NCBI GenBank assembly: GCA_919902675.1
Contig: CAKKRH010000010.1
Location: 38,614 to 102,613 of the forward strand
Direction of reading: 5' to 3'
Length of the DNA stretch: 64,000 bases
DNA from: Omnitrophica bacterium GWA2_41_15
Lineage (GTDB): Bacteria; Omnitrophota; Gorgyraeia; Gygaellales; UBA12090
A model generated the notes under the pieces. The model was not told the DNA's origin, did not search any database, and saw only the letters and a program-made list of their open reading frames with translations. A program made the translations under genes and the position numbers. This document shows, one piece after another, positions 24,941-45,100 of the stretch; the stretch's first letter is position 1, and each line of letters begins with the position of its first letter.

Positions 24941-25219
24941 TTATTTTGTATCTTCATTTTCCTTCTTTCCCGGCTTCTTTTCATCCCGGGCTTCCCGTTG
25001 GGGAGCCGGACTGGGCTTCCTTCTCTCCCTGCCCTGCTGCTGGTAAACTATCTTCTCATTTATCCAGCGCTCGATGTGCTTACGGTGGAATCTCCAGTCC
25101 GCGCCGATCTTAAAGGCCGGGATTTTTCCTTCCCTAGCCAGCTTATTCACCGTAAAAGGGTGCAGTTTGAGGAAATCACTGACTTCCTTGGTGTTCATTA
25201 TGTCTTTAGCCTTGTCCAT
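24941..25219 (-). CDS. Excisionase-family (HTH_17/MerR-like) DNA-binding protein, copy 1
   Basis: KDIMNTKEVSDFLKLHPFTVNKLAREGKIPAFKIGADWRFHRKHIERWI is an excisionase-type HTH. Start moved to MDKAKD (25217-25219), 3 nt after the HepT stop. Confidence 0.7.
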   Translation of the reverse strand: MDKAKDIMNTKEVSDFLKLHPFTVNKLAREGKIPAFKIGADWRFHRKHIERWINEKIVYQQQGRERRKPSPAPQREARDEKKPGKKENEDTK

Positions 25220-25221
25220 AC

Positions 25222-25641
25222 CTACAATTTCGCGTACGCGCAAATTTTCCGTAGAAATAAATATATATCTTCTATGTCCTTAGCTAGAACGCTATAGACC
25301 TTTTTAAAATCGATTGTTTCGTATTCATGGATAATAATGTTTCTAAAGCTGGCCATTTTACTTAATTTCTCCCCTAACTCCCGGCTGATTATCTTGTGCT
25401 CGGCCAAAACATCAAATAGTTCTGCCAAGGTCGCGGGAACTGCCCAGCCGGCATCAGAAATTATATGGCTGGACATATCAACGCATCCCTGAATAGCCAA
25501 CTGCAGATTATGCAGAACTATATCCTGCAAATCAATATTCTTTTTAAATTCATCAAAGCCGACCTTTTGCTTTTCCTTAAGGCGGCTGAGACTATTCTCA
25601 ATACGGGCTATTTTGGCTTTTATGATACTTATATTTACCAT
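25222..25641 (-). CDS. hepT: HepT-like (DUF86) RNase toxin
   Basis: FRNIIIHEYETID (Rx4HxY motif), 139 aa. Confidence 0.8.
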   Translation of the reverse strand: MVNISIIKAKIARIENSLSRLKEKQKVGFDEFKKNIDLQDIVLHNLQLAIQGCVDMSSHIISDAGWAVPATLAELFDVLAEHKIISRELGEKLSKMASFRNIIIHEYETIDFKKVYSVLAKDIEDIYLFLRKICAYAKL

Positions 25642-26069
25642 TACGCGGCTTTATTAATTTTTGATAATATACCTTCTTCGATTCTATTCTTTATGGGCAG
25701 AAAGTCAAAATACTCCACTATCGCCCTGGCCTCAAAACCGCGCTCGTTTCTATCCGCCCTCTCGTAAACCCTCAGGCCGTTTTTCAAAACATTGTATTTT
25801 AGAAAGGAACCTGCCCGGTTTAAAACTACCACATCCGCCTCCCGGCCCAGAAGCCGGCCTAAGTTGACAGCCAGGTCTATTTGCTTATCGGTATAATCTT
25901 CGGGATTCACCATCTTATCAAACAACACCGCTATATCTATATCGCTGTATTTATGAGGACTACCACCGACATATGAGCCAAAAAGGTAAGCCGCCAAAAT
26001 CGTGCTTTCCTTCTTAAAAACACTGCTTATTTTCTCTAATTCTGTTTCACCAAGCATAGATATCCCCAA
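25641..26069 (-). CDS. mntA: MNT-type minimal nucleotidyltransferase antitoxin
   Basis: LFGSYVGGSPHKYSDIDIAV (GSx9-13DxD), 142 aa. Overlaps hepT by 1 nt. Confidence 0.8.
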   Translation of the reverse strand: MGISMLGETELEKISSVFKKESTILAAYLFGSYVGGSPHKYSDIDIAVLFDKMVNPEDYTDKQIDLAVNLGRLLGREADVVVLNRAGSFLKYNVLKNGLRVYERADRNERGFEARAIVEYFDFLPIKNRIEEGILSKINKAA

Positions 26070-26118
26070 ATGCCTGCCGCCTCATCTTAAAAAACCAGGA
26101 AAACCGCGCCCTCAAACC

Positions 26119-26355
26119 TTAAAGTAGCGGCTTATCGAGTTGCTTACCAGGATTTCTTCTCTCCCTGCCCTGCTGTTGATAAACGATCTTCTCGTTTATC
26201 CAGCGCTCGATGTGCTTGCGGTGGAATCTCCAGTCCGCGCCAATCTTAAAAGCGGGAATCTTTCCTTCCCGGGCCAGCTTATTCACCGTAAAAGGGTGCA
26301 GTTTGAGGAAATCACTGACTTCCTTGGTATTCATTATGTCTTTACCCTTGTTCAT
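26119..26355 (-). CDS. Excisionase-family HTH DNA-binding protein, copy 2
   Basis: The protein core is identical to copy 1 (KDIMNTKEVSDFLK...QQQGRERR). DNA is about 90 percent identical over roughly 200 bp (26158-26356 versus 25021-25222). Confidence 0.7.
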   Translation of the reverse strand: MNKGKDIMNTKEVSDFLKLHPFTVNKLAREGKIPAFKIGADWRFHRKHIERWINEKIVYQQQGRERRNPGKQLDKPLL

Positions 26356-26444
26356 CCTTACCTCATTAGATAAAACCAAACACAATTATAAGTATACTAA
26401 ACAAGCAAATACTTGTCAAGAAAAATAAAGCACACCAAAGAAAA

Positions 26445-29864: not shown

Positions 29865-30041
29865 TATTAGTATTTTTAAAAGTGTTTAATAAGTTAGTAA
29901 CAAAATAAGCTTTGCTGCTTTCTAATGTTGCCTGCTTTGTTTGGATTTGTTTCCTCATTCTAAGAAAAAGTATAACATCAAAGCTTTATAAAAACAATGG
30001 CATTTCAGAGGTTTCAGGAAAACGCTTTCTTTAAACAACTT

Positions 30042-30659
30042 TTATTTTGCCGGATTATCGATGCCCGCGGCGCCATAAAATACTGAAATATGCCTATCAG
30101 GGCTAAATTTACTACCCCAAATAACCCTGCCATAAGTTCTAAAAAAATGTTCAACATGCGTTTTAAAGCTAAAAGACGCGCTTGAACGCGGGCTTTTTGC
30201 CAGCGCCTTACCCCACAACTTAGCCAACTTCAAGGCCGGCACGCGCTGTTTCCTGAAAACCCTTACCAAATCATCAACATCAGGGTCTAAATATCTGGCG
30301 ATTTTACCTATGGACCAATAGGCCGGCTCAAGAAGCATAACTATAACCCTTCCAAATCTTTTATAAGGTATCGCGTGGCGCTTATAATCTAAAAAAGTTA
30401 TTTGCGACCACCTATCTATATCTTCTGAGAAATTGACTGCGACACCGGAAACCGCTGATGTCCGTTCTATGGCATCCTGGGCGTCTGCGAAATATTTCTT
30501 ATCACAGCGGACGGCAAAATCTATATCCAAACTTGGCCGCGCTCCGCCTAAAAGATTCCCCGCGGCGCAACCGGTAAGAAAAATCTTCATACCGCCCTTA
30601 ACCTTATTAGAGTTTTGGCCCAGTTTAGAGAAAAAATCATCTATATTCTTTTTATTCAT
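30042..30659 (-). CDS. Putative minimal nucleotidyltransferase-fold protein (candidate toxin/Abi partner of the XRE protein)
   Basis: LTGCAAGNLLGGARPSLDIDFAV fits G[S/C]x13DxD. Overlaps the XRE gene by 8 nt. Confidence 0.35.
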   Translation of the reverse strand: MNKKNIDDFFSKLGQNSNKVKGGMKIFLTGCAAGNLLGGARPSLDIDFAVRCDKKYFADAQDAIERTSAVSGVAVNFSEDIDRWSQITFLDYKRHAIPYKRFGRVIVMLLEPAYWSIGKIARYLDPDVDDLVRVFRKQRVPALKLAKLWGKALAKSPRSSASFSFKTHVEHFFRTYGRVIWGSKFSPDRHISVFYGAAGIDNPAK

Positions 30660-31152
30660 TTATCTTTAGATTTAATAACTTATCCTGCCGAGACAACAAA
30701 TTATCGGCAACTTCTTTTCCAATTCTTGATTTTAACATAAGCCAACTATTTATACATGCCTTGCGCGTCTTAATGGTATTTTTATAAATCTTTTTTTGGG
30801 CATTGATTCTATTTTTAGTTATTTTTGAAAAAAGGCTGCCGATAGTCCTGTCCTTAGGGTTTAATTTATAAAAGGCCGCACCCAAGCTTACCTGTACGGT
30901 ATTTTCTAATACCTTGCGCGGCCAGCTGGCACTCTTATTAAGTTCAAGAGGCGCAATACCATCCACCAATACACCAGGCTTTATCCCCAAGGCAAAAGAA
31001 AGCGCCCTTAATGTGGCTACGGTAATATCCTGCCTGCCATGCTCTATAGCGCTAAGATTAGGCCTGGGAATACCGGCTCTCAGCGCCAATGATTCCTGGG
31101 ACAATCCTTTCGCCAAACGCCACAAACATATATTTTCCCCCAAACTAATCAT
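30652..31152 (-). CDS. XRE-family helix-turn-helix protein with C-terminal extension
   Basis: LAKGLSQESLALRAGIPRPNLSAIEHGRQDITVATLRALSFALGI is a Cro/C1-type HTH. An AATGTAG-N8-CTACATT palindrome lies upstream at 31161-31182. Confidence 0.7.
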   Translation of the reverse strand: MISLGENICLWRLAKGLSQESLALRAGIPRPNLSAIEHGRQDITVATLRALSFALGIKPGVLVDGIAPLELNKSASWPRKVLENTVQVSLGAAFYKLNPKDRTIGSLFSKITKNRINAQKKIYKNTIKTRKACINSWLMLKSRIGKEVADNLLSRQDKLLNLKINE

Positions 31153-31235
31153 GATTATAATGTAGCATATTTACTACATTATGTCAATATAGTTTCTATT
31201 TCGGTATGAAGCTTTGATTTATCAACAAAAAACCG

Positions 31236-31262
31236 AACAAGATGTTCGGTTGCGGATAAAGC
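31236..31262 (-). terminator. Rho-independent terminator (AACCGAACA-aga-TGTTCGGTT with a T-run on the minus strand) after vapC
   Basis: Read directly. Confidence 0.5.
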
Positions 31263-31288
31263 GGCCTTCCGGAAAAGACATATTATCG

Positions 31289-31657
31289 CTATCTTAAGAT
31301 AACCACATTATGAAGCCCAAGAAAATGTTTATCACTGGTAATTAATTTTGCCTTCTCCTGCTGGGCAGTAGCATAAATTATCGCGTCCGCCATAGCAAGA
31401 TTGTATCTAAGACTAACATCTGCCGCTGTCAAAGCCAAACTATCATCCAAGACCACAACCCTGGCCTTACCCATATGGGCGACGGCCAAAAGCGCGTCTT
31501 CCTCGCTTCTCTCCCTTTTAATCTTTTTATAGACCTCATAAATAATTAACGCTGGAACAACGATTTCCTCGATCTTTTCCAGATAGGAGAAATACTTTTG
31601 CGCGAGCGGTCCATCAGTAAAGAACTCCAGCCATCCCGATGAATCAACTAAATTCAT
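31289..31657 (-). CDS. vapC: PIN-domain toxin VapC
   Basis: MNLVDSSGWLEFF...LITSDKHF; PIN acidic residues present; 122 aa. Confidence 0.8.
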   Translation of the reverse strand: MNLVDSSGWLEFFTDGPLAQKYFSYLEKIEEIVVPALIIYEVYKKIKRERSEEDALLAVAHMGKARVVVLDDSLALTAADVSLRYNLAMADAIIYATAQQEKAKLITSDKHFLGLHNVVILR

Positions 31658-31863
31658 ATCCTCTGGCTATGGTCGCGCGGCGACTTAATGTTCATGCCTT
31701 TAATGTATCCGCGGAATTCCTTCAAAGGCTTTCCGGGAACCAATGTAATCAGCCCTTCCTTAACCAGCATCTCTATCTTCTGGCCGCTTTTTAAAGAAAG
31801 CGTCTTTCTTATTGCCTTAGGGATAACTACCTGATACTTCGGAGAAAGCGTTACTTCAAGCAT
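31654..31863 (-). CDS. vapB: AbrB/MazE-type antitoxin VapB
   Basis: 69 aa, SpoVT/AbrB-like swapped-hairpin N-terminus (KYQVVIPKAIRKTL). Overlaps vapC by 4 nt. Confidence 0.7.
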   Translation of the reverse strand: MLEVTLSPKYQVVIPKAIRKTLSLKSGQKIEMLVKEGLITLVPGKPLKEFRGYIKGMNIKSPRDHSQRI

Positions 31864-32044
31864 CGATACATACTCCTTCCAACGATTTGATTATCGTTAA
31901 ATAAAGTATACAACATTTTCACAAAAAAATCAACTTTTTTCCCGACAACAACTGACCCCTCTTTAATCTTTAACCCTCTGCAGGGTTAAAGATTAAAGAA
32001 CAGACTCATCAGTGGTATTTTCGAATAAGCGAATAAGCGAATAA

Positions 32045-32071
32045 GGGGTCAGCCCTTGAAATGTGAAATGA
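32045..32071 (+). repeat. 27-bp terminal-inverted-repeat-type sequence GGGGTCAGCCCTTGAAATGTGAAATGA. An exact inverted copy lies at 38697-38723
   Basis: Perfect 27/27 reverse-complement match read directly. Related to the MITE TIR GGGGTCAGGCCTTGAAACTTGAAAT. Confidence 0.85.
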
Positions 32072-32262
32072 GCTCCTCAACCTCGCGATTAACCTTCTTA
32101 TCCTCTTGTCTTAGACGCTCAATATCCCCGGCCGCTTTACTGACCGCGGAATAGGTTATCCCAAACCTGGTCCCGATTTCAACGTTACTTAAAGAGGTGA
32201 GTTTTTTAGCCAGGTAGATAGCGACCTTCCTGGCGAAAACCGGCTTTTTCTTGCTATTTTAC
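32050..32262 (-). pseudogene. Startless fragment encoding a DnaA-C-terminal-like HTH domain (KVAIYLAKKLTSLSNVEIGTRFG...), probable C-terminal remnant of an IS transposase
   Basis: My translation of the minus strand is open for 70 codons with no ATG and ends (ISHFKG*) inside the 27-bp TIR. Confidence 0.4.
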
Positions 32263-32263
32263 C

Positions 32264-32758
32264 TTACTTATATTTTTTCTCCTGGAAAGGATTATAATAT
32301 TTGCTCATTCCATCCATCAGCAAGGCCAACTCATAAAATTTTTCTTCCGGTATATCCTTAAACTCTTCAAGGCTCTGTATCTCCGTACTATATTTTTCTT
32401 TTATTTCCTTAAACCAAATTGAAAACTGTTCCTTCGCTCGTTCGCGCATATATGCATCCGGAGCGTCATCATAAAATGTCTGTATTACAAATCCTTGATA
32501 AGACTTCAGCAGTTTAACCTTATCTTTTGAGCTCCATTTAACAGTAACGCCAATAACCCAAGCACCCCCATGGTATACACCAAAATTAATATTTTTAATC
32601 GCCATGTTGCTCTCATGTCTTTTCCTGAACTGAGCATAAACAGCTCTGATTATCTCTAATCCATCATTATTATAAACATTCCACCCTGAAGATACTAAAG
32701 CCTTTTCTTCGTTTGATAAATTAAACCATTCTTGTGGTCTAGTATTTTTGCTTACCAT
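32264..32758 (-). CDS. Hypothetical protein, AT-rich orphan ORF embedded in IS/MITE debris
   Basis: 164-aa ORF with no recognisable motifs. Confidence 0.4.
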   Translation of the reverse strand: MVSKNTRPQEWFNLSNEEKALVSSGWNVYNNDGLEIIRAVYAQFRKRHESNMAIKNINFGVYHGGAWVIGVTVKWSSKDKVKLLKSYQGFVIQTFYDDAPDAYMRERAKEQFSIWFKEIKEKYSTEIQSLEEFKDIPEEKFYELALLMDGMSKYYNPFQEKKYK

Positions 32759-32800
32759 ATTGGGGCAAATTTTGGCTTATTACGATCTAATAATAATTAT

Positions 32801-32929
32801 GGGATCAGGCCTTGAAACTTGAAATTAGTCATCAACTTTGCAAACAGCCTCAAGAAACAAATAAAACATTTATTCTACACCAAATAACAAAGCTATTGGT
32901 TAAATTCAATATTCAAGGTCTGGCCCCTT
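32801..32929. mobile_element. MITE-like element copy A (about 129 bp) with TIRs GGGATCAGGCCTTGAA...TTCAAGGTCTGGCCCC
   Basis: Near-identical copy at 38522-38648; partial right-end copies at 33102-33132 and 33171-33199. Confidence 0.6.
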
Positions 32930-33095
32930 AATCCCTTTTGCAGTTTTAAGGTATTCAAGGAATTTTTGGTAGTCGGTTTTATCGAAGAAAATCTTTTTGC
33001 GGTCATCACCGCGGCTGGTTATGTGATAAAGGCAGCCTTCGCCTTGCAGTCTGTAAGGACGGGCCTTAGCTGTATTTTATACTGGACAACGAGAT
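32930..33095 (-). pseudogene. N-terminal fragment of a Y1/IS200-like (RAYT-type) transposase, truncated by the MITE at 32929
   Basis: My translation reads ARPYRLQGEGCLYHITSRGDDRKKIFFDKTDYQKFLEYL, matching the R.PR..GE..YH..RGN.R..IF.D..D...FL..L N-terminal pattern of IS200-like transposases. No ATG and no downstream HUH/Tyr part. Confidence 0.5.
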
Positions 33096-33287
33096 TATCA
33101 AGTTAAATTCAACATTCAAGGCCTGAGCCCTTAATATTTTTATTTGCTTTCGCACTTACAATTACAATCTTCTCATTCAAGGACTGACACCTTTATCCAT
33201 CAAACTATGGGTTAAGGAACGATGTTCTATATTTACTTTTACAAGGGGGGGGAACTTGACAGGGAGTACTCTTATGCCTTAAATAAG

Positions 33288-34889
33288 CTAAGGCAATAGC
33301 TCATTTTTAGCATGATTGATTGCCACTGCAAAATTGAGATTCTGTCCTTCATCAAAACTGGAAGATGTAATCCCAATCACTTCTCCATTCATATTAAAAA
33401 GTGCACCTCCACTGCTTCCAGGAGAAATCGGCGCGCTAATCTGAATAAGTTTGGTGCCGTTCATATCCCTCACCGCACTGACTAAGCCATCGGAAACTGT
33501 ATTTTCGAGCCCTTTAGGATTACCGATCGCTACAACCCGCTCCCCAACAGAAACTAGATCTGAATCTCCTAAAACCACCGGTATAAAATTACCGGCACCG
33601 TTAATTTTTAACAACGCCAAATCTCTAATCGTATTATCCTTAACAATTTGAACATTGGAATAGACGCGATTATCGGCAATAAATTTTATTGATATTGCTC
33701 CTCCTCCACTAATTACATGAGAATTAGTAATAATCAATCCGTCTGAGCTAACAACAAAACCGCTGCCAATCGTCCCTTGGGCCTGTACAAGAACAACTGA
33801 CTTACCGAAAGCGCCAACAATCTCTTCCGCTGAAGATATTGGTAAGCTCTTTTTTGCGAGCTTCCCTGAAGATTCAAGCGGGGATACGCTCTGCTTTTTT
33901 GAAGCATCACTTCCGAAAATCTCATTCCAGCGGTTTATTTCGTTCTCTTCTTGAAACTTGATCCGTTTTGCTGAGACAAGATCCCCTTCCTTAACGGCCT
34001 CCTTCATATCAAATGGCCGAGCTAAAGATAGATTCTTTTCCAATACCTCAGTAATCTTAATTTTAGCAATCTCCGTTTGCTTATATCCAAGGATACGACT
34101 CGTAGCTTGATCTTTAATCGGTTCATGTAAACGAACTACAGCGAAAACATCATTTTTTTCAATCTTATCGTTAAGACCCGCATTTATATATATACCTTTG
34201 TCATCTATGCGGACAACGCGACAAATCCAATAATCACCTTTAACATCATCCGATAGAATACTAACCGCATCTGCTAAGGCCTCTTGCAAATAATTTTTCT
34301 GCCCTGTTCCGGTTGCGATAATATCTCCTGTATTAACATCTACCAAGCGCAATGTCGCTGTATATTGACTATCTCCGAATCGTTCACCACTCTTATTAGG
34401 AAGAATATCTCCAAACAAAACATATTGTACCCCATAAATATTTCCTAATTGATTAGCGGGATCTTTTTTTACCCAATCGGATTTCTCGAATTGTATCTCA
34501 CGGATTAATTGATTCACTTCTTGTCGCTCTACGACATCAAACATACTGGTCTTTTTAAGAAGGTCAGATAACAATCCTACAACAAGGTTAACTTTTGGTT
34601 CGCTGGGTTTTTCCAAGTTTGGCGTGGCAATATTGATGTTATACGCATGCGAGCCGCTCGTTTCTGTCTTGTCGGTTTTGTTAAACGGACTACCGGAGAT
34701 ATTGATTGACTCACCAAAGCTACCAATAGCTACCTTATATTTTGTATTTTTCTCTTTAATCTGACTTAGTTTCTTATGAAGGTACTCAAATTCTTTCTTC
34801 ACTCCTTCTTCTGCCCGAACAATCCCTTGAGCGATAAAACCGAATACTAAAAATAAAATAAATAAATAGAAAACAAGATTTTTCTTCAC
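33288..34889 (-). CDS. Secreted fusion protein: CsgG-like (TolB-N-like fold) N-terminal domain plus C-terminal trypsin-like serine protease (S1)
   Basis: Signal peptide; CsgG-like pattern VAIGSF...DVVERQEVNQLIREIQ...GVQYVLFGDI...RLVDVNTGDII; protease triad context GSGFVVSSDGLIITNSHV (His), DLALLKI (Asp), GSSGGALFN (Ser). Confidence 0.6.
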   Translation of the reverse strand: MKKNLVFYLFILFLVFGFIAQGIVRAEEGVKKEFEYLHKKLSQIKEKNTKYKVAIGSFGESINISGSPFNKTDKTETSGSHAYNINIATPNLEKPSEPKVNLVVGLLSDLLKKTSMFDVVERQEVNQLIREIQFEKSDWVKKDPANQLGNIYGVQYVLFGDILPNKSGERFGDSQYTATLRLVDVNTGDIIATGTGQKNYLQEALADAVSILSDDVKGDYWICRVVRIDDKGIYINAGLNDKIEKNDVFAVVRLHEPIKDQATSRILGYKQTEIAKIKITEVLEKNLSLARPFDMKEAVKEGDLVSAKRIKFQEENEINRWNEIFGSDASKKQSVSPLESSGKLAKKSLPISSAEEIVGAFGKSVVLVQAQGTIGSGFVVSSDGLIITNSHVISGGGAISIKFIADNRVYSNVQIVKDNTIRDLALLKINGAGNFIPVVLGDSDLVSVGERVVAIGNPKGLENTVSDGLVSAVRDMNGTKLIQISAPISPGSSGGALFNMNGEVIGITSSSFDEGQNLNFAVAINHAKNELLP

Positions 34890-34916
34890 TGTTTACTCCT
34901 TTATTGTATTTCTTTA

Positions 34917-35345
34917 TTATTGCGCCTTACGAATGCGGATCGTATAATCCTTAGCTTTAGGATTAAAGGCAGTCGTTTTGTACGCATACGTAGAATATCG
35001 TGGTATCAAAACAAGTTCCCAATTAGTATCGTCTCCTATTTGAAAATCCTGTTCATCGCGGAAAACAGTTTGAACTTGCAATCTTAATAACTCATCTTTC
35101 ATATTTCGGATCTCGCAGTAGACTTTAAGCCGTTTATCCTCAGTCCAGTCCGTCTTTTGAGCTAAAATAACAACACGCTTTGAAGAAAACTGATTGTCCA
35201 GGTCCTTATCGAGGATAACTACTTTAAGATTTCTTTCCTTATCCTCATGAGCATTATATGGAATAGCATGATACGGTCCGGTAGCACAACCGTTTAAAAG
35301 AAAAATCCCGGTTACAAGATAAAAGATACGCGAAGGCTTCAACAT
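34917..35345 (-). CDS. Small lipoprotein (lipobox LLNGC), possibly DUF4810-like
   Basis: Lipobox after the signal peptide, 142 aa; assignment is from operon context only. Confidence 0.45.
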   Translation of the reverse strand: MLKPSRIFYLVTGIFLLNGCATGPYHAIPYNAHEDKERNLKVVILDKDLDNQFSSKRVVILAQKTDWTEDKRLKVYCEIRNMKDELLRLQVQTVFRDEQDFQIGDDTNWELVLIPRYSTYAYKTTAFNPKAKDYTIRIRKAQ

Positions 35346-35368
35346 ATTCAGCTCCTTATCGTTTAAGT

Positions 35369-35959
35369 TTATTGATAGGCAACCCCTGCTTCGCCTACTC
35401 GTTTAATTTCATAGGAATCTTCCCAAACAATATCGCTATTTTCTGCATCAATCAACTGAAAAGCCATCAAGACATAATCTGACCGGTTTCCGCTAGCTGC
35501 CTTTGATAACCCAGTCAATTCTCCGGTCAAGTATAAATCGACACCCAACAGATCATCTTCTTTGCTGGCTGTTACCAGATTCTTTCTTTTAGCTTCGCGT
35601 TCCTTAAGAACATCCTCTATCCGGTCACGGGCAAGAAAACGCACCTTACCAGTAGCATTCTTATTAAGTTCGATTCGAATCTTTTGAGTAAAAATATCTT
35701 TATTAATTATAAATCGCGTATTGTTCTTAACCGGCAAAATAGCGATTCGGGGAGTTCCTTTAGCGTTCATAACCTCAGGGATCTCTAAAATGGATAGAGC
35801 CATCTTCCGCGCAACCGTCATGATATCGGTAGATTCAATACCTGTTCCCCCTAGATTATCATCATCATCAGGAAGGATCACGGTTGAGTGCGAAATCGGA
35901 ACACTAGCACAAGACGATAATGTAAGTGTAAGTAGAAAAAACAATGTCCAATATCTCAT
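35369..35959 (-). CDS. Lipoprotein with TolB-N/LpoB/DUF799 (GNA1162)-like pattern
   Basis: Lipobox LSSC; RIAILPVKNNT...RIEDVLKERE...GVDLYLTGELTG...FQLIDAENSDIVWE resembles the CsgG/LpoB/DUF799 fold pattern. Confidence 0.5.
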   Translation of the reverse strand: MRYWTLFFLLTLTLSSCASVPISHSTVILPDDDDNLGGTGIESTDIMTVARKMALSILEIPEVMNAKGTPRIAILPVKNNTRFIINKDIFTQKIRIELNKNATGKVRFLARDRIEDVLKEREAKRKNLVTASKEDDLLGVDLYLTGELTGLSKAASGNRSDYVLMAFQLIDAENSDIVWEDSYEIKRVGEAGVAYQ

Positions 35960-35970
35960 ATTTTTCTCCT

Positions 35971-36543
35971 TTAGTATACTATATCTTTTATAATAGTTCG
36001 ATTTTGCAAAACAGGATAACCATTTTTGAAACGCACCTGATCTTCATCAATTCTGTCTTCTATTTTAATCTCGTGAGTCTGGCGACCTTCAAATACAAAG
36101 AAACCAATCTCCATTCTCCCCGCATAGCTGATTCGCCCCGGAGCGACATCGAATAGTCTATTGACACCCAAGAGAGACTGCATTCCGTTCAAAGATACCA
36201 GCTTATAAGTCCCTCTATGTAATTTTAAAGAAAACAAAAACAAATCATCCTGTTTAATATAATTTTCATTCGGAGAAGGAACGAAAAACCATTTTTTATT
36301 ACCGTATGCCTTGTATTGATTAACCTCTTGCAATGTTAAGCTTGCAACCCGAAAAACATCTTTTTGATCTGGTTTATCTTTATTGTTAAATTTACAAGAA
36401 AAAAGCACTATCCCCTCTTTTGGCTGCAGCTCTAGCGTAGTTTTACGCTTCATGAGCAAATAAGGACTAGCGCAACCTAATGTGGACAAGGATAAAATTA
36501 GTATAAGTGCCCAAAGTTGAAATTGTTTTCTCCTCGATTTCAT
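35971..36543 (-). CDS. Lipoprotein, hypothetical
   Basis: Lipobox TLGC, 190 aa. Start overlaps the upstream TPR gene stop by 4 nt (operon). Confidence 0.5.
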   Translation of the reverse strand: MKSRRKQFQLWALILILSLSTLGCASPYLLMKRKTTLELQPKEGIVLFSCKFNNKDKPDQKDVFRVASLTLQEVNQYKAYGNKKWFFVPSPNENYIKQDDLFLFSLKLHRGTYKLVSLNGMQSLLGVNRLFDVAPGRISYAGRMEIGFFVFEGRQTHEIKIEDRIDEDQVRFKNGYPVLQNRTIIKDIVY

Positions 36544-38201
36544 TCTGTAATCCTTTGTATAATAACGTTATCGCCTTCGTGAATATTTACATCAAATTCT
36601 TTGCTTAACCCTGCAATTAGATTATTGCTGGCATCTGAGACCTGAAGTTGAATATGGTGCTGACCGATAGAAAGCCTAGTAGGAATTACACGCACTTCAG
36701 CGGGCAACAGGCTCCAGTGCCGCACATCGGCTGCGGGATTAGCTATTGAGCTCCCAATAGCAAAGGCTAAGCTTATAAGAGCTATACCTACAGCAGCATA
36801 CGATGCTCCTGCTGCAGCAGCACCACCAGTTCCATAGAGACCAGCTTGTTGCTGTAATCTATTGGCTTGATCAGACATTTGCCGAGATACCTGCGATAAT
36901 TGATACGAAATTTGTGCTGTCGTCTCTTTAAACTCAGCCTTACCCTTAAGAATGCCATCCATCATTCGCCCGCCACGAGTTGATGCTTGGTAAATAGTGT
37001 CATTATAGAGCATCGTCTTATGCTCATCAAAACTATCTTTTTTATCTACCACGATCACAACATTATTTGCCTTAAACGGCTTAGATGTAAAGACGGCTAT
37101 TTGGCCATATTCACCAATCGGGTACTTGATTGGACCGCGTCCTAGTTCAACAATAAACAAAACATTATTGGTGGTATCGACGACTTGCTTAAGAATTTCT
37201 GTTGAAATTTGCTTGCAATTTTCGGTGCGGATTCCAGTCAATGTTGTAATAGCTGTTTCAAACGCTTGGATTTCTGCTTCGAGCGATAGGACTTCCTTTG
37301 GTTTCTTAGGAGAACTGGTTGTACTATCATCTTTTCCTTTTGAAGAAAAATTCTGAACTGGACCCTTTGAAGCCACCTGTCCTTTTTTCTTATCTTTCTC
37401 CTCTTTCTTTGGCTTCGAGGGAGCCTGTTTAGACATCAATTTCTCTAACTCTTTTTGTTTTTGACCCAAAAGATTAAGCTTGCTTTGCTCGTCTGAAACA
37501 ACATATCTATTAATAGGATAAGCCAAAAAGTATGCCTCTTGTGCTTTTTTAAAATATTCATCGCTCATTGACTGATTATTATGCAGTATTTCCAATCTAG
37601 CTGCCAATAAATATAGTAATGTTGCATCGCTCTTATAAAGTCCACCCTCTACATCTGAATCGCATAATATTCCGTTTTTCACAGCAGCAAGGGCATTGTC
37701 ATAATCATGTTCTTGTTCTAATAACAAGGCTACATAGAGTGAATTATAAACTCTTTCATAAGGATCACCTTTATACGCCTTCTCTCTTTCTTCCCCTGTT
37801 AATGAAACGGCGCGAGATTCCAGATGGCTAAAAGCAGACGTATCATTCATAAGGTAGTAAGCACCGAGAAATGCACTTAAAGCTTGCTTATAATCTCCTG
37901 CTGTAAGATAAATTGATCCTAGCTGATTATTCCAAAGAGCAAAATCCTTGTCTTTCGTTTTCGCGAAAGCAGCAAACAAAGAACCGGCTTTAGCAAAATC
38001 ACCTGAGTAGAAGGCAAACTCACCATCAATTGCCTGTTCACTTGGAATAGGCTTACTTTCGGCAGGTTTTGATTTGACAGATTCTGATTGAGATCCGCTA
38101 AAATTGGATGTCTGAGCTAAAGATGGGGTTAATTGGGCAGAAAGGAATGCCAAGATGAGAAGAAAACAAGCTAACTTCTTTAAAGCGCTTTTTTCCAACA
38201 T
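36540..38201 (-). CDS. Secreted TPR-repeat protein with lysine-rich low-complexity linker and C-terminal domain of unknown function
   Basis: Signal peptide; TPR-like helices over residues 60-230; a KKEEKDKKKG linker; C-terminal domain ending with a hydrophobic segment. Confidence 0.6.
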   Translation of the reverse strand: MLEKSALKKLACFLLILAFLSAQLTPSLAQTSNFSGSQSESVKSKPAESKPIPSEQAIDGEFAFYSGDFAKAGSLFAAFAKTKDKDFALWNNQLGSIYLTAGDYKQALSAFLGAYYLMNDTSAFSHLESRAVSLTGEEREKAYKGDPYERVYNSLYVALLLEQEHDYDNALAAVKNGILCDSDVEGGLYKSDATLLYLLAARLEILHNNQSMSDEYFKKAQEAYFLAYPINRYVVSDEQSKLNLLGQKQKELEKLMSKQAPSKPKKEEKDKKKGQVASKGPVQNFSSKGKDDSTTSSPKKPKEVLSLEAEIQAFETAITTLTGIRTENCKQISTEILKQVVDTTNNVLFIVELGRGPIKYPIGEYGQIAVFTSKPFKANNVVIVVDKKDSFDEHKTMLYNDTIYQASTRGGRMMDGILKGKAEFKETTAQISYQLSQVSRQMSDQANRLQQQAGLYGTGGAAAAGASYAAVGIALISLAFAIGSSIANPAADVRHWSLLPAEVRVIPTRLSIGQHHIQLQVSDASNNLIAGLSKEFDVNIHEGDNVIIQRITE

Positions 38202-38299
38202 CTTCTCCTCTCTACGAATGAGTAAACCACAAGAAGCAATTCATATTATATAAAAAATGCGGTATTTGTCAAAGCTTAACTTGCGTCATGTTAAATAAG

Positions 38300-38505
38300 A
38301 ATTAAAAGTCCCCAGTTCAATGAGGAAGTGCAACGATTTTATAGTTCGTGTGAGAAAATTGGCTTTATCGAAACCTCTTTTGCAACTCGTAGTCGGAATG
38401 CTTAAATCGACGGTGGAGAATTCAAAAATGGGATGTCTAAATAAGCCGCTCTCTCCGATTAAAAACTTATTTCTGACAACTAGGCGTTGCACTTCCTGGT
38501 TGAAT
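38300..38505. repeat. About 200-bp element bounded by 20-bp inverted repeats (TTCAATGAGGAAGTGCAACG ... CGTTGCACTTCCTGGTTGAATG); probably non-coding
   Basis: Read directly. The track ORFs 38286..38492 and 38320..38652 lie within it and look spurious. Confidence 0.4.
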
Positions 38506-38521
38506 GTAGTTCTTCAATTAT

Positions 38522-38648
38522 GGGGTCAGGCCTTGAAACTTGAAATTAGTCATCAACTTTGCAAACAGCCTCAAGAAACAAGTAAAACATTTACTCCGCA
38601 CCAAATAACAAAGCTATCAGTTAAATTCAACATTCAAGGCCTGACCCC
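38522..38648. mobile_element. MITE-like element copy B (TIRs GGGGTCAGGCCTTGAA...TTCAAGGCCTGACCCC)
   Basis: About 90 percent identical to copy A at 32801-32929. Confidence 0.6.
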
Positions 38649-38696
38649 CTAATCCGCATGTTTTAATTCTATCGGAAAGACTAAGAGATATCAAAT

Positions 38697-38723
38697 CATT
38701 TCACATTTCAAGGGCTGACCCCT
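38697..38723 (-). repeat. Inverted exact copy of the 27-bp TIR at 32045-32071
   Basis: TCATTTCACATTTCAAGGGCTGACCCC is the reverse complement of 32045-32071. Confidence 0.85.
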
Positions 38724-38762
38724 ATTTCTCTCCTCTGGAATTAGACTGGCCCTTATTTTCCC

Positions 38763-39191
38763 TCATTTCTTCCACTTATTGTATACTTTTTTATTATTGA
38801 TAATAATTGCATACAAACTATTCCAACTTATCCGCCAACTTGAATTTATTGATCCGGGCTTAGAATTCTTAAAAATAAACTCAGTTGCATTTTTCGTTGA
38901 CAACACCTCTTTACAATGTGGACACCTGGGTTTTGTCAACCGAGTGAATTTTCCTCCACATTCGCATTTCTCTAGAAACTGCTCTATGTCTCTATTGATT
39001 TTTTCGTACCTATCTTTAATCTTAAAAAAACAAAGACATGCTTGGGGAATTTGTTTATAATGTTCTTCCAAAAAGAGTGTTTTTCCACAACTATCACAGT
39101 AAGCATATGTGGTCTCATTAAAGCCATTATGGATTAATTCATATGAAAATTTGAAGCCACATTTATTACAATAGCCGATTTCTTTTTTCAT
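38763..39191 (-). CDS. Double zinc-ribbon small protein; candidate immunity protein for the RHS C-terminal toxin
   Basis: CNKCG...CDSCG and CECGG...CPHC; 142 aa; very AT-rich; immediately 3' of the RHS gene. Confidence 0.45.
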   Translation of the reverse strand: MKKEIGYCNKCGFKFSYELIHNGFNETTYAYCDSCGKTLFLEEHYKQIPQACLCFFKIKDRYEKINRDIEQFLEKCECGGKFTRLTKPRCPHCKEVLSTKNATEFIFKNSKPGSINSSWRISWNSLYAIIINNKKVYNKWKK

Positions 39192-39199
39192 GTTCTTGA

Positions 39200-42100
39200 T
39201 TATTCGATTTCATAGCCTCGGTTTAAACGCCTTTGCCAGATTTTCCCAGGAAGTGTATTCTCTCCACCATGTTTTACTCCAGGCACATATAGATCAGATT
39301 GCTTAACATTCAAGTCAAAATGATATTTCCCTTTTCCAGCACCTATGCCTAATTTTGATTCTATGGTAGTGGCTCGTGTTCCTTTTGGAAATGCATCTGC
39401 TTTCGTAACAAAGGCGTGCCTATTAAGTTTTCCAGCTTGTTCCATAGCTTCTTTCCCCGCTTTATTAGTATAATGCCGTACCCTGGTTAAGTCATCACCT
39501 TTATTTATCACTTTACTCGCTATCCCAGCCCCACCTGGTACTCCCGGAGCAAGTAAAGCAAGAGAATCTGCAATTAACCCTAGTCCATTCATAAAGCTGG
39601 GGGTATCATTGAATTGCTTTATGGATTGACAAAATGAAGTAATATCCCAAAAGGTTTCCCAAAACCCTCTTGGGGTTGGAGCTTCACTAAGGCTAGAGGC
39701 TTCGCCGTAGGTGAAGCCGCTGGAGATACCTGTGACCAAACCAGAGCCGAAGACTCCACCCCAGAAACCTTCCGCTCCATTCTGCTGATATGCGGTTATC
39801 CCAGAGGCGATCACCACTCCAGCATCAAATATCTGCCGGCCAACATTTTTAAAAATTCCGGCTACCCCCTCCCCTAGTATCCCTGTCCCTAAACCAAACG
39901 CTGCTCCCCATAGCGCACCATCACCAGCATTTTGGCCGCTTAATCCCGCGGTAGTGGCTCCTCCCGCGGCTCCGGCTATGGCTCCAGTCAACATCGGCCA
40001 GATAAACGGCGAAGCGATAACCGCTACCAAAGCCGCGACTACCCCGCCGGCAAAACTGTTCCAGAACTTTTTCCAGCTCCATTTATGACCACTCGGATCG
40101 GTGTAATTTATAGGATTGTTGTTACAATAGGAATAACGGTTTAGGTCCTGAGGGTTGTAGGGGTTGGGGACTATGGTATCAGGGGTTATGAAACGGCCTA
40201 TGTCGGGGTCGTAGTATCTGGCGCCGTAGAAGTATAGGGCGGTTGTGGGGTCTTCTTCTTTGCCGGTGTATTTGTAGTTGGTGGTTTTGGTGCCGTCGGA
40301 GAGATATGTCTTGCCGTAGGGGTAATACTCTATACGCTGTTCTTTCTTGCCGTCGGCATCGCTAATCACATTGCTTGAGCCTAGGTGGTCGGAGTGGTAG
40401 TAGTGCGGCTCCTGCAGTCCATTTACCGTAAGGACACGCTGGGAGCCGAGATAGATGTGCTTCTTGGCGCTGTCTTGAGAGTCTACCTCATAGAGGCTGC
40501 CCACATAGGTTGTGGTCAGGCCGGAACTAGAGACATACTTCTTCACCCTGCCTCCGTCTCCGTCATAGGTGAAGTTAGTGGTGGCGCTTGTGGCATCTTG
40601 GTCGTAAGAGAGCTTCCAGGAGGCGTCTTTCAGACAGTGGATAAAATAGGCCTGGCCCACGATCATATTCGCCTCTGTGCCCATTGCTATGTATTTCTTG
40701 CTATCGGTATAATATTCCTGGAGGCTGTCGTAATCGCTGTCACGCTCCAGGTTATTCAAGGCGCTTTTGACTGTGATGCTATTTTTAGAAGGACAGCCAA
40801 TCAGGTTCCAGCCTTTCTTCAGGGATTTGGTCATCTGATCCGAGGAGGTCTTACCGGAGACAGTCAGGCTGACGCTGCTTAGGCTTGAGATATACACCTG
40901 GTAGCCTCTGCCATATTCTAAGCTGGTGAATTGGTTAAAGTCTGAGTTTTTGACATAGTGCTCGAACTTCTCATCCTTAGGGTTATAGCGGGAGATTTGG
41001 TTGTATTTTGAGAAGATGCTTGAGAATACACTGCTTATCTCTAAGCTCTCCGGGATTAGCGGCAGGGCAAAGAAGTTCCAGCCCGGATTTAAGGTCAGAC
41101 TTACCGAGGCGGAAACAGACTCATCGGAACCCTCAGGCGAGGTCTTGGTCAGCCGGTTCTCATAGTCATAGGTATAGTTAATGGTCTTTGATTCTGAGGT
41201 AGTCTTCTCTTTAAGGTTGCCGTTTGAGTCGTATTCAAAGCTTGAGCCGTCGGAGAGGCCGCTTAAGGCGTGGGGCTTGTCCGAATTATAGCTGTAAGTA
41301 GTTGAGCCGTTTGAGAGCATATTGCCAATTGAATCATAGCTGTAATCTATTGAACCATAACTGCCGGAGGCAGAAGTCAGACGGTTCAGGTTATCATAAC
41401 TAAAACTCTGGTTAGAGCCGTATTGGGAATCAGTAATACCCTTGACATTACCGTTACTATAGAACTCATAGGAGAGATTCTGCAAGGTACCCTGGCTGCC
41501 TTCAGTTTTTAGGGTAGAGAGCCTCAAGGTCTTTTCATCGTAGGTGTAGTTAGTCTCTACATCGTTGCCGTATTTGATATAGGTTATCTGACCGCTGGCG
41601 TTGTAGTTTACCTCTTTGACATAGTCTTTATCCATATAGCCGTTTCGCACCTTAGTCGGGCCCTGGGCGGAATATGTGTATTCCAGGTAATTGCTATCCG
41701 GGTATTTGAGCTTAGTTAAGCGATCCAAGGTGTCGTATTCCTTTTCCACGCTGTAGCTGGTTGAGTCTATAGTCTTGGTAGACTTGGTCTCCCGGCCTAA
41801 GCTATCATACCAGAATTCGGTAGAGCCGCTCTGGTCGCTGATCTTGGATAATCTGCCCTTATAGTTCTCTTTAGAACTGTCATCATAAGTATAGCTGACC
41901 AGGGTCTTGGATTCGGGCGAGGTTACCTTCTTTTTGGTTAAACGGTTTAACTCGTCATACTCAAATTCTAAAACCTGCTCTTTGGCATCGGTCTGCTTAG
42001 TAAGGTTACCCAGGTCGTCGTATTCATAACTCCAGACCCCCATATCCGGATCGTCCATCTTGACCTTGCGGCCTAAGGAGTCATAGTAGATAGAACTGGT

Positions 42101-45100
42101 ATTGCCTTTGGCGTCTTTGACCTTGGTTAGGTTGCCCTGGATGTCGTAGGTATAGGTAGTGGTGTAAACTTGGGAGTCGTTGTGCTCTTCCACCTTGGTC
42201 AGGCGACCGTAGGCGTCGTTATAATAAGTATGGTAATTGCCGTTCTCATCAGTCTTGGTAGTGGTCCAGTCAGAGTAGCTGGTTGAGCTATAGCTGCCAT
42301 CCGGGTTAGTGTTCTGGGTCAGACGGCCTACCGGGTCATAGTCAAAGCTGAAATAATAACCGGAATAACTAGGCGAGCTAAAGGAGCTATCGTTACTTAC
42401 CAGATAGGGCAGATACTGCTTATTAACCTGGCCTTTTGAGTCATAGGTTACTATCCCGGAAACCACCTGGTAGCTCTCATCCTGGGCCGGGGATTTAGTT
42501 TCTATCATGCGGCCCAAACCGTCAGAGAACTGGTAGGTGGCCAGGTAATTACCGGAGTAATCGCTTTTGACCTTTTTGGTAACTTTTATGGGCTGACTGG
42601 ATAAGTTATATTCATAGCTTATCCCGGGCAGGCTTTCGCTGTCTTTGGGGCCAATGGCTGAGGTCAACCGGCCCAAGCTGTCGTAGCGGTATTCAGTTGC
42701 CTGGCTGTTGGAGTCGGTAGACTTGGTAACCTGGCCGGTCTGGTAATCGTATTCGTTGTTTAAGGTATGGCCTTTGGAATTGGTGATCTTGGTAGGATAA
42801 CTGTGCAGGGTGGAATCGTATTCGGTTGTAGTAGCGTAGCCTTTAGAGTTGGTGGCCTTGGTGAGATTACCATAAGAGTCATAACTGTATTGGCTGGAGA
42901 GCTTCTTCTCGCTTGCGTCCTGGGAGTTATACAGCCAGGCCTCCTCTTTAGTCAATAAGCCATGGCTGGCTGAGGCATCATAAGAGTCAGCTCCATCATA
43001 ATAAAACCACCTCTGGGTTACTCTTTCTCCGCTTGCGTCCGCAAGTTTGACAGACTTAGGCAGACCGACTATCCAGTCTGAGGTATTATAGCTATACTCC
43101 GTGGTTAGGGTTCTTTCATCGCCGCTTTCGGAGACATTGCCTTGGCTCTGAACCTTGGCGGGGTTGCCGTAGTCATCGTATTCGTAGGTTAGGCGGGTCT
43201 GCTTATAGCTGGAGTCACCGTCATAGATATAGCTGTCGGCCTGGCTCACATAGGCGAAGTTGACCCCGGAATAAAGCTCCTTTTTGCTCCAGGTGTTTTC
43301 AGCTTTGGCATAGAGATTGCCGCCGGAGTCTCTGGTCTCCTGCTTGTAAGGCTTGCCCTTGTAGACCGAGTCCTGCTTAAAATAGCTCTCGCTGTAATTG
43401 CCGTCGCTATCGGTTACTTTGCAATAGCCAAAGCCCCTAAACTCCCGCTCGCTAAAATCAAATACTCCGTCCTTATAGCTGTAGTTAGTGCTGTAGCTAT
43501 TGCCCCGGCCGTCGCTTAGCTGGCTCTGGCTGACCGCGTATATCGGGAAGCTCAAGTCTGACTGAGTATCAGATCCGCTGTTAGAATACTGGCTAGAGGA
43601 TTTATAGGTTATCTCGATGCTGCCGCCTATGCCGCTATCTATCTGTTTTAATAATTCGGGGTATGGGCTGGGATTAATATAGCTAGAGGTCTCGCTATCA
43701 GTGGGATGATGGATAAAATCCAGCTGGCCGTCGGAATTCACATCCAGGACCCTGGTGCCATCGGTAAAATCTCCGGTAGTCATCTTCCAGCTAGAGTCCT
43801 CTTTCCAGCCTAAGCCGGTGTTGATGTAGGTCTTTCGCAAAGAACTGCCTTTATTGATCAGGATATCGGCTAAGCCGTCGTTATTCACATCGGCAAACTG
43901 AGTGGAGTTATCGTTGATGTTGGCATCTGAGGGCGGATCAAGGCTCGACTCCCTGGCCCAGCCGCCTCCGGTATTAAGATAGGTCTTTCTCCCAAGACTA
44001 GAGGTATCGCTGGCTATCACCAAATCCAATAGGCCGTCGGCGTTTAGGTCAACCAATTGCGTGCCGTCCCGTAAGTCACCGTCAGGAAGGGCCCAGGAGC
44101 TGTTTTCGCTCCAGCCGCTAGACTTATTATTCAGATAGGTTATCCGGCTGTCGGAGCGGCAGTAAACATAATCCGCGTAACCGTCACTATTGAGATCAGC
44201 TAAAATCACCCCTTGAGATTCATGCCAGTCATGATACTCATCATACCTGGCTACGGCTATGTATTTACCGCTGGGAAAACTCCAGCCGGAGCTACTCTCC
44301 CAGCCGCTTTGCTTATTGTTTAAATTTATACTATTAATCACACCCCCTTCTTTGGTTTGGAAATTCTGCACCAAGTCCACCCAGCCGTCTCCGTTTATAT
44401 CCGCGAAACGCACCCCCTGGTCCCCGGTGTATGACCAGATATGCGGGCTAATCTGCCAGTTGGTGGTTTCCTTCCAGGCGGAGACGGAAGAATCAAACAA
44501 AAAGCTGTGGTTTTCGGTATAATTATCTCCGTAATACCGCTTTCTGATTATATCCGGATAGGTATCGTTATTCACATCCACAATCACGCATCCGGAATCA
44601 AAGTTGGCGTAAGGGGGGATGCTGTAACTGGTGCCGGAGGCCTGCCAGCCCTGAGACTGCTGTTGATATTCAAAGCTGATTTCCGGAAGGCTTATATTAT
44701 TATCCTGGCCGTAAGTCTTGACCGAGCTAAGCAAACTGCGGCTGTTCTGGGAGGTGGCATAGCTTAAAACATACCGGCGCACCTGCTCATCCTGGTATTT
44801 TACTTTAATCTCGCTTAGCCTCTTGGCCATAGTTGCCTTAAATCCCGGCCGGTAATTAATAATGCTGTCAGAGCGGCTCTCGTAGCTAAATTGGACGCTG
44901 TAAGCCGGCTCAAGTGAATTACCGCTGTTACCGGTATAACTTATCCGGCTGGGATAGAGCTGGTTGTCTTCTTTTGTATAACTTATAGTCAAATAGTTAT
45001 TATAAAGGTCTTCCACCCTGTTCAAAGACCATCTAAATACCTTGGAGCCGTAGTCCTGGCGGCTGGAGCTGGTCTGGCCAAAGTAGTATTTAATCCCGGA

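Follow-up and report, generated by a model that had tools for sequence, protein, structure and literature searches.

A five-gene operon for exported envelope proteins in Omnitrophota, with an HtrA-type protease fused to a predicted FlgT-like module

We describe five genes, called A to E, on the minus strand of a 64,000-nucleotide (nt) stretch of contig CAKKRH010000010.1 from Omnitrophica bacterium GWA2_41_15. This whole stretch is referred to as the window, and positions are counted from its first letter. The five genes, at positions 33288-38201, form a genuine operon for exported cell-envelope proteins. An LpoB-family lipoprotein (C), a lipoprotein of the DUF1425/YcfL family (D) and a tetratricopeptide repeat (TPR) protein (A) are encoded together with an orphan lipoprotein (B) and with protein E, in which a predicted FlgT-like module precedes an HtrA-type protease domain. 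Our explanation, to which we give about an even chance, is that this chromosomal operon specifies a periplasmic complex, tethered to the outer membrane, which maintains the envelope and carries its own protease. The rival explanations are, in decreasing order of likelihood, a peripheral ring around a trans-envelope machine, activation of a penicillin-binding protein (PBP) in the manner of LpoB, cargo of an island, and a CsgG channel. Each is considered below with the evidence that bears on it.

The operon and its LpoB/YcfL-family core

The features of the operon, all on the minus strand, are as follows; the genes are those of an open reading frame (ORF) scan, and lengths are in amino acids (aa).

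36540-38201 (-), gene A, 553 aa
35971-36543 (-), gene B, 190 aa
35369-35959 (-), gene C, 196 aa
34917-35345 (-), gene D, 142 aa
33288-34889 (-), gene E, 533 aa, GTG start
38245-38272 (-), sigma-70-type promoter, TTGACA-16 nt-TATAAT, 44 nt upstream of the gene A start

Exactly five consecutive minus-strand ORFs occupy 33288-38201 in the ORF scan. Genes A and B overlap by 4 nt, and the remaining intergenic gaps are 11, 23 and 27 nt. All five products are predicted to be exported, three by lipoboxes (B, C and D) and two by ordinary signal peptides (A and E). In the three lipoproteins, the cysteine that follows the hydrophobic N-terminus is invariant among homologues (G23-C24 in B, C17 in C, G19-C20 in D), while the N-termini of A and E are hydrophobic signal peptides without a conserved lipobox cysteine. 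A preliminary description of this DNA, made from its letters alone, had called the same five packed, co-oriented genes and the same export signals, and both calls are upheld here. The promoter matches the consensus at 12 of 12 positions; this is a consensus match only, and the region shows no enrichment of promoter-like sites as a class. No paralogue of A-E was found elsewhere in the 64-kb window. The region is one transcription unit, coding for five exported proteins.

A nearly identical contig is public (ENA ERZ1286166 contig_28, 2.15 Mb, 99.92% identical to the window). Compared with window positions 30001-42000, it carries 8 indels in 12 kb, and on it gene A is called as two pieces of 363 and 157 aa and gene E as three of 147, 246 and 149 aa. 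These indels look like uncorrected frameshift errors, which would make the public gene calls under-report A and E. In the window the ORFs are intact and in agreement with full-length homologues, and the window version is therefore the credible one.

Protein C matches Pfam LpoB (PF13036) over the whole profile, with 71.8 bits (7.2e-20), and reaches 19.4 bits with Pfam CsgG, under the cutoff of 20.8. Its profile matches the LpoB structures 4q6l and 4q6z and, weakly, PelC, which is a dodecamer. Aligned to E. coli LpoB by hhalign, C is homologous over the full length (probability 94.8%, E = 5e-8) and lacks most of the long linker of the E. coli protein. Protein D, with its lipobox at Cys20, scores 26.5 bits with Pfam DUF1425 in the window copy, against a cutoff of 28.3, and all 13 D family members examined match DUF1425 at E < 0.01. 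Comparison with E. coli YcfL by hhalign gave a probability of 76% and E = 2.2e-5. No solved structure was matched by the D profile in the PDB, nor did a structure of Cj0090 come up. The two genes, ycfL and lpoB, are neighbours in E. coli K-12. As C and D are homologous to their products, the C-D pairing must be ancient.

This kinship raises the question of whether C is itself a regulator of the LpoB type, activating a PBP1B-like class A PBP, with A, D and E as accessories in peptidoglycan synthesis or hydrolysis. The full-length homology and the conserved YcfL-LpoB pairing speak for this, and the link proposed between the Helicobacter protein HP0018 and MltD/AmiA also points to peptidoglycan. 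However, C obtains 61.9 bits with the NCBIfam LpoB equivalog TIGR02722, where the cutoff is 110.55, and the part of the linker that it lacks is most of the disordered segment by which LpoB spans the periplasm. To our knowledge, moreover, the partnership between LpoB and PBP1B (UB2H) has been described only in enterobacteria and close relatives. We consider such a regulator unlikely here.

Protein A has three parts, which lie within 36540-38201 (-):

signal peptide, then a TPR-like N-domain at about residues 60-230, with the motif KGDPYER at 144
low-complexity linker rich in Lys, Ser and Glu, about residues 235-330
conserved C-terminal domain, with GRGP at 354, STRGGR at 407, a hydrophobic segment at 460-491, and ADVRHW at 491 after NPA

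The Pfam TPR matches of A are all sub-threshold, whereas its relatives carry clear ones. Profile searches of the PDB picked up TPR/PPR proteins with the N-region of A and no solved relative with its C-terminal half. The family is recognized by the motifs KGDPYER, GRGP, STRGGR and NPxADxRxWxxLP. An exhaustive profile search gathered 4295 representatives at 50% identity with E <= 1e-3, of which 769 fell below 1e-30. Pfam matches on record for this family are to TPR models only, and the C-terminal half has no Pfam model; it appears to be a large, seemingly uncurated domain family. The C-terminal domain (window 36540-37220) contains a Gly/Ala-rich hydrophobic segment, residues 460-491, which is a probable membrane segment.

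Gene B encodes a lipoprotein anchored at Cys24, with G23-C24 invariant in 10 homologues. Neither its single sequence nor its profile matched anything in Pfam, NCBIfam or the PDB.

Protein E, a predicted FlgT-like module with a protease

The following regions of E were delimited, residue limits being approximate for the domains; a linker separates the FlgT-like part from the protease.

33288-34889 (-), whole E, exported fusion, signal peptide at residues 1-26, no lipobox
34242-34748 (-), residues 48-216, alpha/beta domain of the TolB-N/LpoB/CsgG superfamily, equivalent to FlgT-M (Pfam, Foldseek and model)
33960-34229 (-), residues 221-310, FlgT_C/TsaP-like beta-barrel domain, best-modelled part (pLDDT 80-90)
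33291-33830 (-), residues 354-533, HtrA-type (S1C) serine protease domain without PDZ, catalytic triad H391, D423, S493

The C-terminal half matches Trypsin_2 with 114.9 bits (6.5e-33). The triad contexts, TNSHV around H391, RDLALL around D423 and GSSGG around S493, are kept in each of the 24 full-length homologues aligned, so that the complete S1 protease noted in the preliminary description is borne out. In a phmmer search of the PDB, HtrA was matched at 4.6e-26 with 30-37% identity, and Foldseek gave a target-normalised TM-score of about 0.8 to DegS-deltaPDZ and to the HtrA1 catalytic domain; the fold also matches DegP. The score with degP_htrA_DO (TIGR02037), 140.6 bits for a cutoff of 416.2, is far under the cutoff, as with every HtrA-family equivalog. 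No PDZ domain was matched in E, whose chain ends 40 residues past Ser493. HtrA proteases normally rely on PDZ domains both to recognise their substrates and to become activated. From its sequence, the C-half of E looks like an active HtrA-type protease. In public databases, E is annotated only as 'trypsin-like peptidase domain-containing protein' or 'CsgG/V8-like endopeptidase'.

The N-terminal half belongs to the same superfamily as C. Residues 106-205 match Pfam CsgG with 40.6 bits (2.3e-10, cutoff 20.8) and LpoB with 32.7 bits (8e-8), and profile-profile comparison of this half with the C family gave E = 4.9e-4. The TolB-N-like kinship that had been noticed between the 196-aa and 533-aa proteins is thereby confirmed. 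The signal peptide of E ends in ...GIVRA/EEG, and no cysteine is conserved among 29 aligned homologues.

To compare folds, residues 24-330 were modelled apart from the protease, from an alignment of 85 sequences, as Foldseek with the whole of E is dominated by HtrA matches and is uninformative on this half. The model has a beta-alpha-beta-alpha-alpha-beta-beta-beta-alpha domain, then a beta-barrel, then a conserved helix with an invariant W321. Its best PDB matches are both to FlgT, in the Vibrio LPHT ring (8z5n_0, 3.3e-10) and in the crystal structure 3w1e (1.3e-9), and they cover both domains over 260-311 columns. The CsgG match is at 2e-5 with a TM-score of 0.24; FlgT is thus better by five orders of magnitude, with a doubled TM-score. 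Lower matches are to TolB, PelC/PelBC, CT253, LpoB and GNA1162 (3.7e-3). The beta-barrel profile matches TsaP (6ve2) at 9e-4. No domain equivalent to FlgT-N stands ahead of the alpha/beta domain, and the Pfam models FlgT_M and FlgT_C are reached with 12.9 bits (cutoff 31.2) and 14.2 bits (cutoff 27). Matches to PF16538 are on record for two E homologues, P0017 and P0035. The weak Pfam FlgT scores, these PF16538 records and the TsaP match of the barrel are all consistent with the order of the Foldseek matches.

Within E, residues S67, F69 and N70 (window 34680-34691) are invariant. They lie in a variable, low-confidence insert of 40 residues after strand 1, roughly at the position of the CsgG constriction loop and of the conserved Asn of the LpoB family.

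The preliminary description had seen in E a CsgG-like channel module, and in the cluster a variant of the CsgG-like/DUF4810/DUF799 (GNA1162) transport system. Such a CsgG-type nonameric channel, fused to a protease, is in keeping with the Pfam CsgG score above the gathering cutoff, with the match of the N-half profile to CsgG structures at 3e-4, and with the presence of CsgG and GNA1162 among the Foldseek matches. The details of the alignment do not favour it. The Pfam CsgG match (PF03783) spans only profile positions 43-157 of 210, and in the HMMER alignment it is limited to two short core stretches, 41 profile positions of E facing 61 residues of CsgG. In the models, which are of moderate confidence in this part, strands 156-164, 176-184 and 190-198 are connected by loops of 11 and 5 residues, and the membrane hairpins of CsgG are absent. 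E also lacks the lipobox cysteine, FlgT is far the better structural match, and C is of the LpoB family, under the CsgG threshold. As to partners, D is of the DUF1425/YcfL family and B is an orphan; none of A-E matched DUF799 or DUF4810 in Pfam at E <= 1, and the assignment to that tri-lipoprotein system therefore fails on the terms set in the preliminary description itself. We regard the channel as largely refuted, the least credible of the explanations. Because FlgT is the best match, and because lipid anchor and membrane hairpins are lacking, the N-half of E is best modelled as a CsgG-superfamily member that serves as a soluble, FlgT-like scaffold and forms no channel.

The same fold matches raise another alternative, namely that E and its partners form a peripheral periplasmic ring around a machine that crosses the envelope, for instance the secretin of a pilus, the bushing of a flagellum or an exporter of polysaccharide, and that the protease acts on this machine or on its substrate. 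Analogues exist in FlgT of the H ring, TsaP around PilQ, and the PelC ring with its TPR-bearing PelB. The best folds for the N-half are precisely FlgT in the LPHT ring (8z5n) and in its crystal structure (3w1e); the barrel resembles TsaP, C weakly resembles the PelC dodecamer, PelC/PelBC are among the matches of E, and a TPR protein is present. On the other hand, no secretin, porin, flagellar, pilus or glycosyltransferase gene is found in the cluster or as a conserved neighbour in the loci examined, E has no FlgT-N, and the Pfam FlgT scores are far under threshold. It is thus a rather improbable alternative, though it comes first among the rivals.

Conservation and neighbourhood

Nearly all named homologues come from metagenome-assembled genomes (MAGs) of Candidatus Omnitrophota. 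Scanning a genome collection with the E alignment returned 21 loci, in MAGs labelled Omnitrophota or PVC (Planctomycetes-Verrucomicrobia-Chlamydiae) apart from two, a 1.5-kb fragment in a Gammaproteobacteria-labelled MAG and a MAG labelled 'bacterium'. Synteny of the cluster extends over about 20 Omnitrophota/PVC loci, at 28-93% identity. ORF-by-ORF comparison by phmmer distinguished two layouts: A-B-C-D-E, to which gene B is confined, and C-D-E-A', without B.

Protein E itself exists in two forms, one of about 530-570 aa with the protease, the other of 332 aa without it. The latter ends cleanly just past the W321 helix, with no protease remnant. A neighbour-joining tree built on the N-half unites the protease-less forms in one clade nested among the full-length proteins, except for a single 329-aa outlier (P0051) beside it. 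Given this nesting, the fusion is ancestral and the protease was lost secondarily, once, in the nested subclade. The FlgT-like module is therefore the constant part of E, and the existence of a protease-less clade argues that the core function lies in this scaffold, with the protease as an accessory.

Outside Omnitrophota, profile searches with A recovered nearly the same set of homologues and a few Alphaproteobacteria. They reached Rhodospirillaceae, Magnetospirillum, Sphingomonas and Victivallales, and no named Campylobacterota; of ten representatives looked up, a single one carried an organism name, that of a Victivallales MAG. An A-like gene adjoins an LpoB-family gene in a Magnetospirillum MAG, on one metagenome contig (where the next gene is a weak DUF1425 match) and on a plasmid of Sphingomonas hankookensis (where the LpoB-family protein is annotated 'CsgG/HfaB family protein'). 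The fourth gene of the proteobacterial clusters, of about 280-300 aa, was tried as a relative of the E N-half, and comparison shows no relationship.

Some loci differ in detail. In three relatives (L001 11627-13529, L005 6988-8896 and L030 9046-10647), the genes after E code for a YajG-like (Lipoprotein_16) lipoprotein, for a second A-like paralogue, or for both. Neither is present in the window, where the stretch downstream of E holds only repeat fragments, described below. A tblastn search for remnants of the two genes finds gene A only, so that these fragments mask no pseudogenes. In Candidatus Zapsychrus exili (L008 4903-7493), three tandem LpoB-family genes of 216, 282 and 321 aa replace B and C, a local expansion of the C family. 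A literature search turned up no paper on the arrangement, in agreement with its being called undescribed before, and no paper linking Omnitrophota with these protein families.

The operon is flanked by two copies of an element resembling a miniature inverted-repeat transposable element (MITE), and partial copies lie around it:

32795-32934, 140-nt MITE-like element, downstream flank, with 32-nt terminal inverted repeats
38516-38655, 140-nt MITE-like element, upstream flank, 92% identical to the other copy and in the same orientation, with 32-nt terminal inverted repeats
32036-32071, 33104-33135 and 38696-38731, solo terminal-repeat copies
33175-33190, weaker solo terminal repeat, with 3 mismatches to the core

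Counting over the window gave 8 copies of the inverted-repeat core, for 0.63 expected. Between the two 140-nt repeats lie the operon and its promoter, and nothing more. No integrase, transposase or tRNA gene was found at the borders or between the repeats, and no MITE-like element in the other loci. The GC content of the cluster region is 0.37-0.41, compared with 0.42-0.50 around it, and the flanking genes differ in every relative examined, even at 84-91% identity.

The cluster might accordingly be the cargo of a mobile island, or of a defence or offence island, bounded by repeats and set beside an RHS toxin and toxin-antitoxin modules. The direct repeats, the lower GC and the changing flanks fit this, as do the neighbours, a giant RHS/Tc-like protein and PIN/MazE and HepT/MNT modules, and the protease domain of E matches PADLOC protease models. 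Set against these, the borders hold no mobility gene or tRNA, and the repeats are short, MITE-like, present also as solo ends and missing from the relatives. All five products are exported, which does not suit intracellular defence, and gene order is kept over 28-93% identity, and the phylogeny within the cluster looks vertical. We judge an island cargo to be very unlikely. Anti-phage defence in particular was rejected, as the PADLOC matches reflect the generic trypsin fold only and the other four proteins have none. Of the repeat-bounded, probably mobile segment proposed in the preliminary description, the repeats stand (140 nt, 92%); the mobile cargo does not, the repeats being MITE-like, mobility genes absent and the operon phylum-wide. 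The operon itself is conserved and resident, while its neighbourhood is variable, and we consider mobility of the operon unlikely.

The neighbouring genes were also surveyed. Adjoining the cluster upstream, 39200-45736 (-) encodes a 2178-aa RHS/Tc-toxin-like protein, whose Pfam matches in the near-identical public contig are SpvB, FG-GAP, TcdB_toxin_midN and RHS repeats. At 38763-39191 (-), a 142-aa Cys-rich ORF with several CxxC pairs matches no Pfam family; it may be an immunity or accessory protein of this RHS-like neighbour. Downstream of the cluster are a PIN-domain toxin (31289-31657), a MazE/AbrB-type antitoxin (31654-31863) and an HTH_3 protein (30652-31152). A HepT-like RNase / nucleotidyltransferase (MNT) toxin-antitoxin pair at 25222-26069 has on either side a direct repeat of 212 nt (25014-25225 and 26150-26361, 91% identical); 25014-26361 is a second small repeat-bounded module in the region. 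The whole 20-39 kb stretch is variable, rich in toxin-antitoxin genes and low in GC. It includes, at 20624-20706, a 31-nt inverted repeat (84% complementary, 21-nt spacer) containing ...CATTGCGAGCGTAGCGAAGCAATC..., which we take to resemble a short repeat common in genomes of uncultured bacteria. Two genes for fn3/PKD-domain surface proteins (558 and 758 aa) have internal direct repeats with a period of about 600 nt, at 46121-47310 and 26640-27311, and one such repeat pair measures 300 nt with 83% identity; these look like recent domain duplications.

A proposed envelope complex and known systems

How could the five proteins work together? We propose a core module made of C, D and A, the last with its TPR and conserved C-terminal domain and its one internal hydrophobic segment. 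This composition has parallels in E. coli ycfL-lpoB, in C. jejuni cj0089-cj0091 and in HP0018/HP1457, and in Omnitrophota the orphan lipoprotein B and the soluble periplasmic protein E would have been added to it. A would be held at the inner membrane, its TPR repeats and long, flexible, Lys-rich linker reaching into the periplasm, and B, C and D would be anchored in the outer membrane and hang into the periplasm. In the flagellar motor, FlgT forms a periplasmic ring of 26 subunits. With its M domain it clamps the lipidated loop at the N-terminus of the lipoprotein FlgH, and the tail of another lipoprotein, FlgP, sits in grooves of the ring (bioRxiv 10.64898/2025.12.04.692373). The FlgT-like module of E may dock in a similar way on B, C or D or their linkers, or on A. 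It would then replace the PDZ domains as the targeting device of the protease, and bring to the complex an HtrA-type protease, which would process envelope proteins or cell-wall-remodelling factors or control their quality.

Several points weigh against this explanation. The complex of five proteins, its topology, the docking mode and the role in envelope maintenance are what we infer from the genes, and the same holds for any interaction among A-E. The function of the core module is itself obscure in every organism. The likening of A to Cj0089 and HP0018 comes from their shared architecture and from adjacency to an LpoB-family gene, and is not a sequence test. The model of the E N-half is of moderate confidence (mean pLDDT 62, pTM 0.51), and its match to FlgT has a query-normalised TM-score of 0.46-0.47 with 11-13% identity. 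The A' variants of the C-D-E-A' layout share part of A only. Finally, the protease is dispensable in one subclade.

A stronger version would have the FlgT-like module of E and protein C form a multimeric ring under the outer membrane, surmounted by a crown of HtrA-type proteases. We think this doubtful. If true, such a ring would be a previously unseen, phylum-specific envelope structure of Omnitrophota, possibly a proteolytic gate or processing station, and perhaps tied to the host-dependent or predatory lifestyle proposed for ultrasmall Omnitrophota.

The proposed complex would matter in more than one respect. The LpoB-like/YcfL-like/TPR module is very widespread, yet unexplained outside enterobacterial LpoB. 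That it is joined here by a FlgT-type scaffold with an HtrA-type protease suggests that the module works in the periplasm as an assembled complex, with envelope proteins or the cell wall as its target. In the complex as we propose it, E would illustrate an alternative to PDZ domains for targeting HtrA proteases. Close lineages having E with and without the protease amount to a natural experiment, and a phylum-wide envelope operon offers a handle for cryo-electron tomography and proteomics in a phylum with almost no cultured members.

Systems close to the core in composition are known from Campylobacterota. In C. jejuni, cell fractionation places Cj0089 at the inner membrane and Cj0091 at the outer one, and adherence and early colonisation depend on Cj0091 (PMC3100323). 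For HP0018 of Helicobacter, an envelope-maintenance phenotype has been reported, in that strains deleted for the gene show hypervesiculation and an altered shape that is no longer helical; MltD and AmiA co-precipitate with HP0018 (PMC11394524). Like cj0089-cj0091 and the HP0018-HP1457 set of H. pylori and enterohepatic Helicobacter, our cluster brings together genes for a TPR protein (about 450-550 aa), a small lipoprotein (about 120-140 aa) and a lipoprotein of the LpoB family (about 200 aa); D and A are likened to Cj0090 and Cj0089 by operon composition, not by sequence. The Omnitrophota operon differs from these in gene order, in the signal peptide without lipobox of A, and in the extra genes B and E. 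With E. coli ycfL-lpoB it shares a DUF1425 lipoprotein gene directly beside an LpoB-family gene, in reversed order, and the E. coli operon has neither a TPR partner nor a protease.

For protein E, the closest parallel in architecture is FlgT of the Vibrio H ring (3w1e, 8z5n). In each, a TolB-N-like M domain comes first and a beta-barrel C domain after it, and each is a soluble protein of the periplasm that has a signal peptide and lacks a lipid anchor. Unlike FlgT, E has no FlgT-N domain, does not reach the Pfam FlgT models, has no flagellar context and ends in a protease, which is never the case in FlgT. With HtrA, DegP and DegS (S1C), E shares the protease fold and the catalytic triad, whereas in place of PDZ domains it has a FlgT-like N-terminal module of about 330 residues. 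With CsgG and the CsgG-like/DUF4810/DUF799 cluster, finally, it shares the common alpha/beta superfamily core; it lacks both the lipid anchor and the transmembrane hairpins, and its cluster has no DUF799 or DUF4810 partners. The operon is a lineage-specific elaboration of a known and poorly understood module, in an unusual combination of domains.

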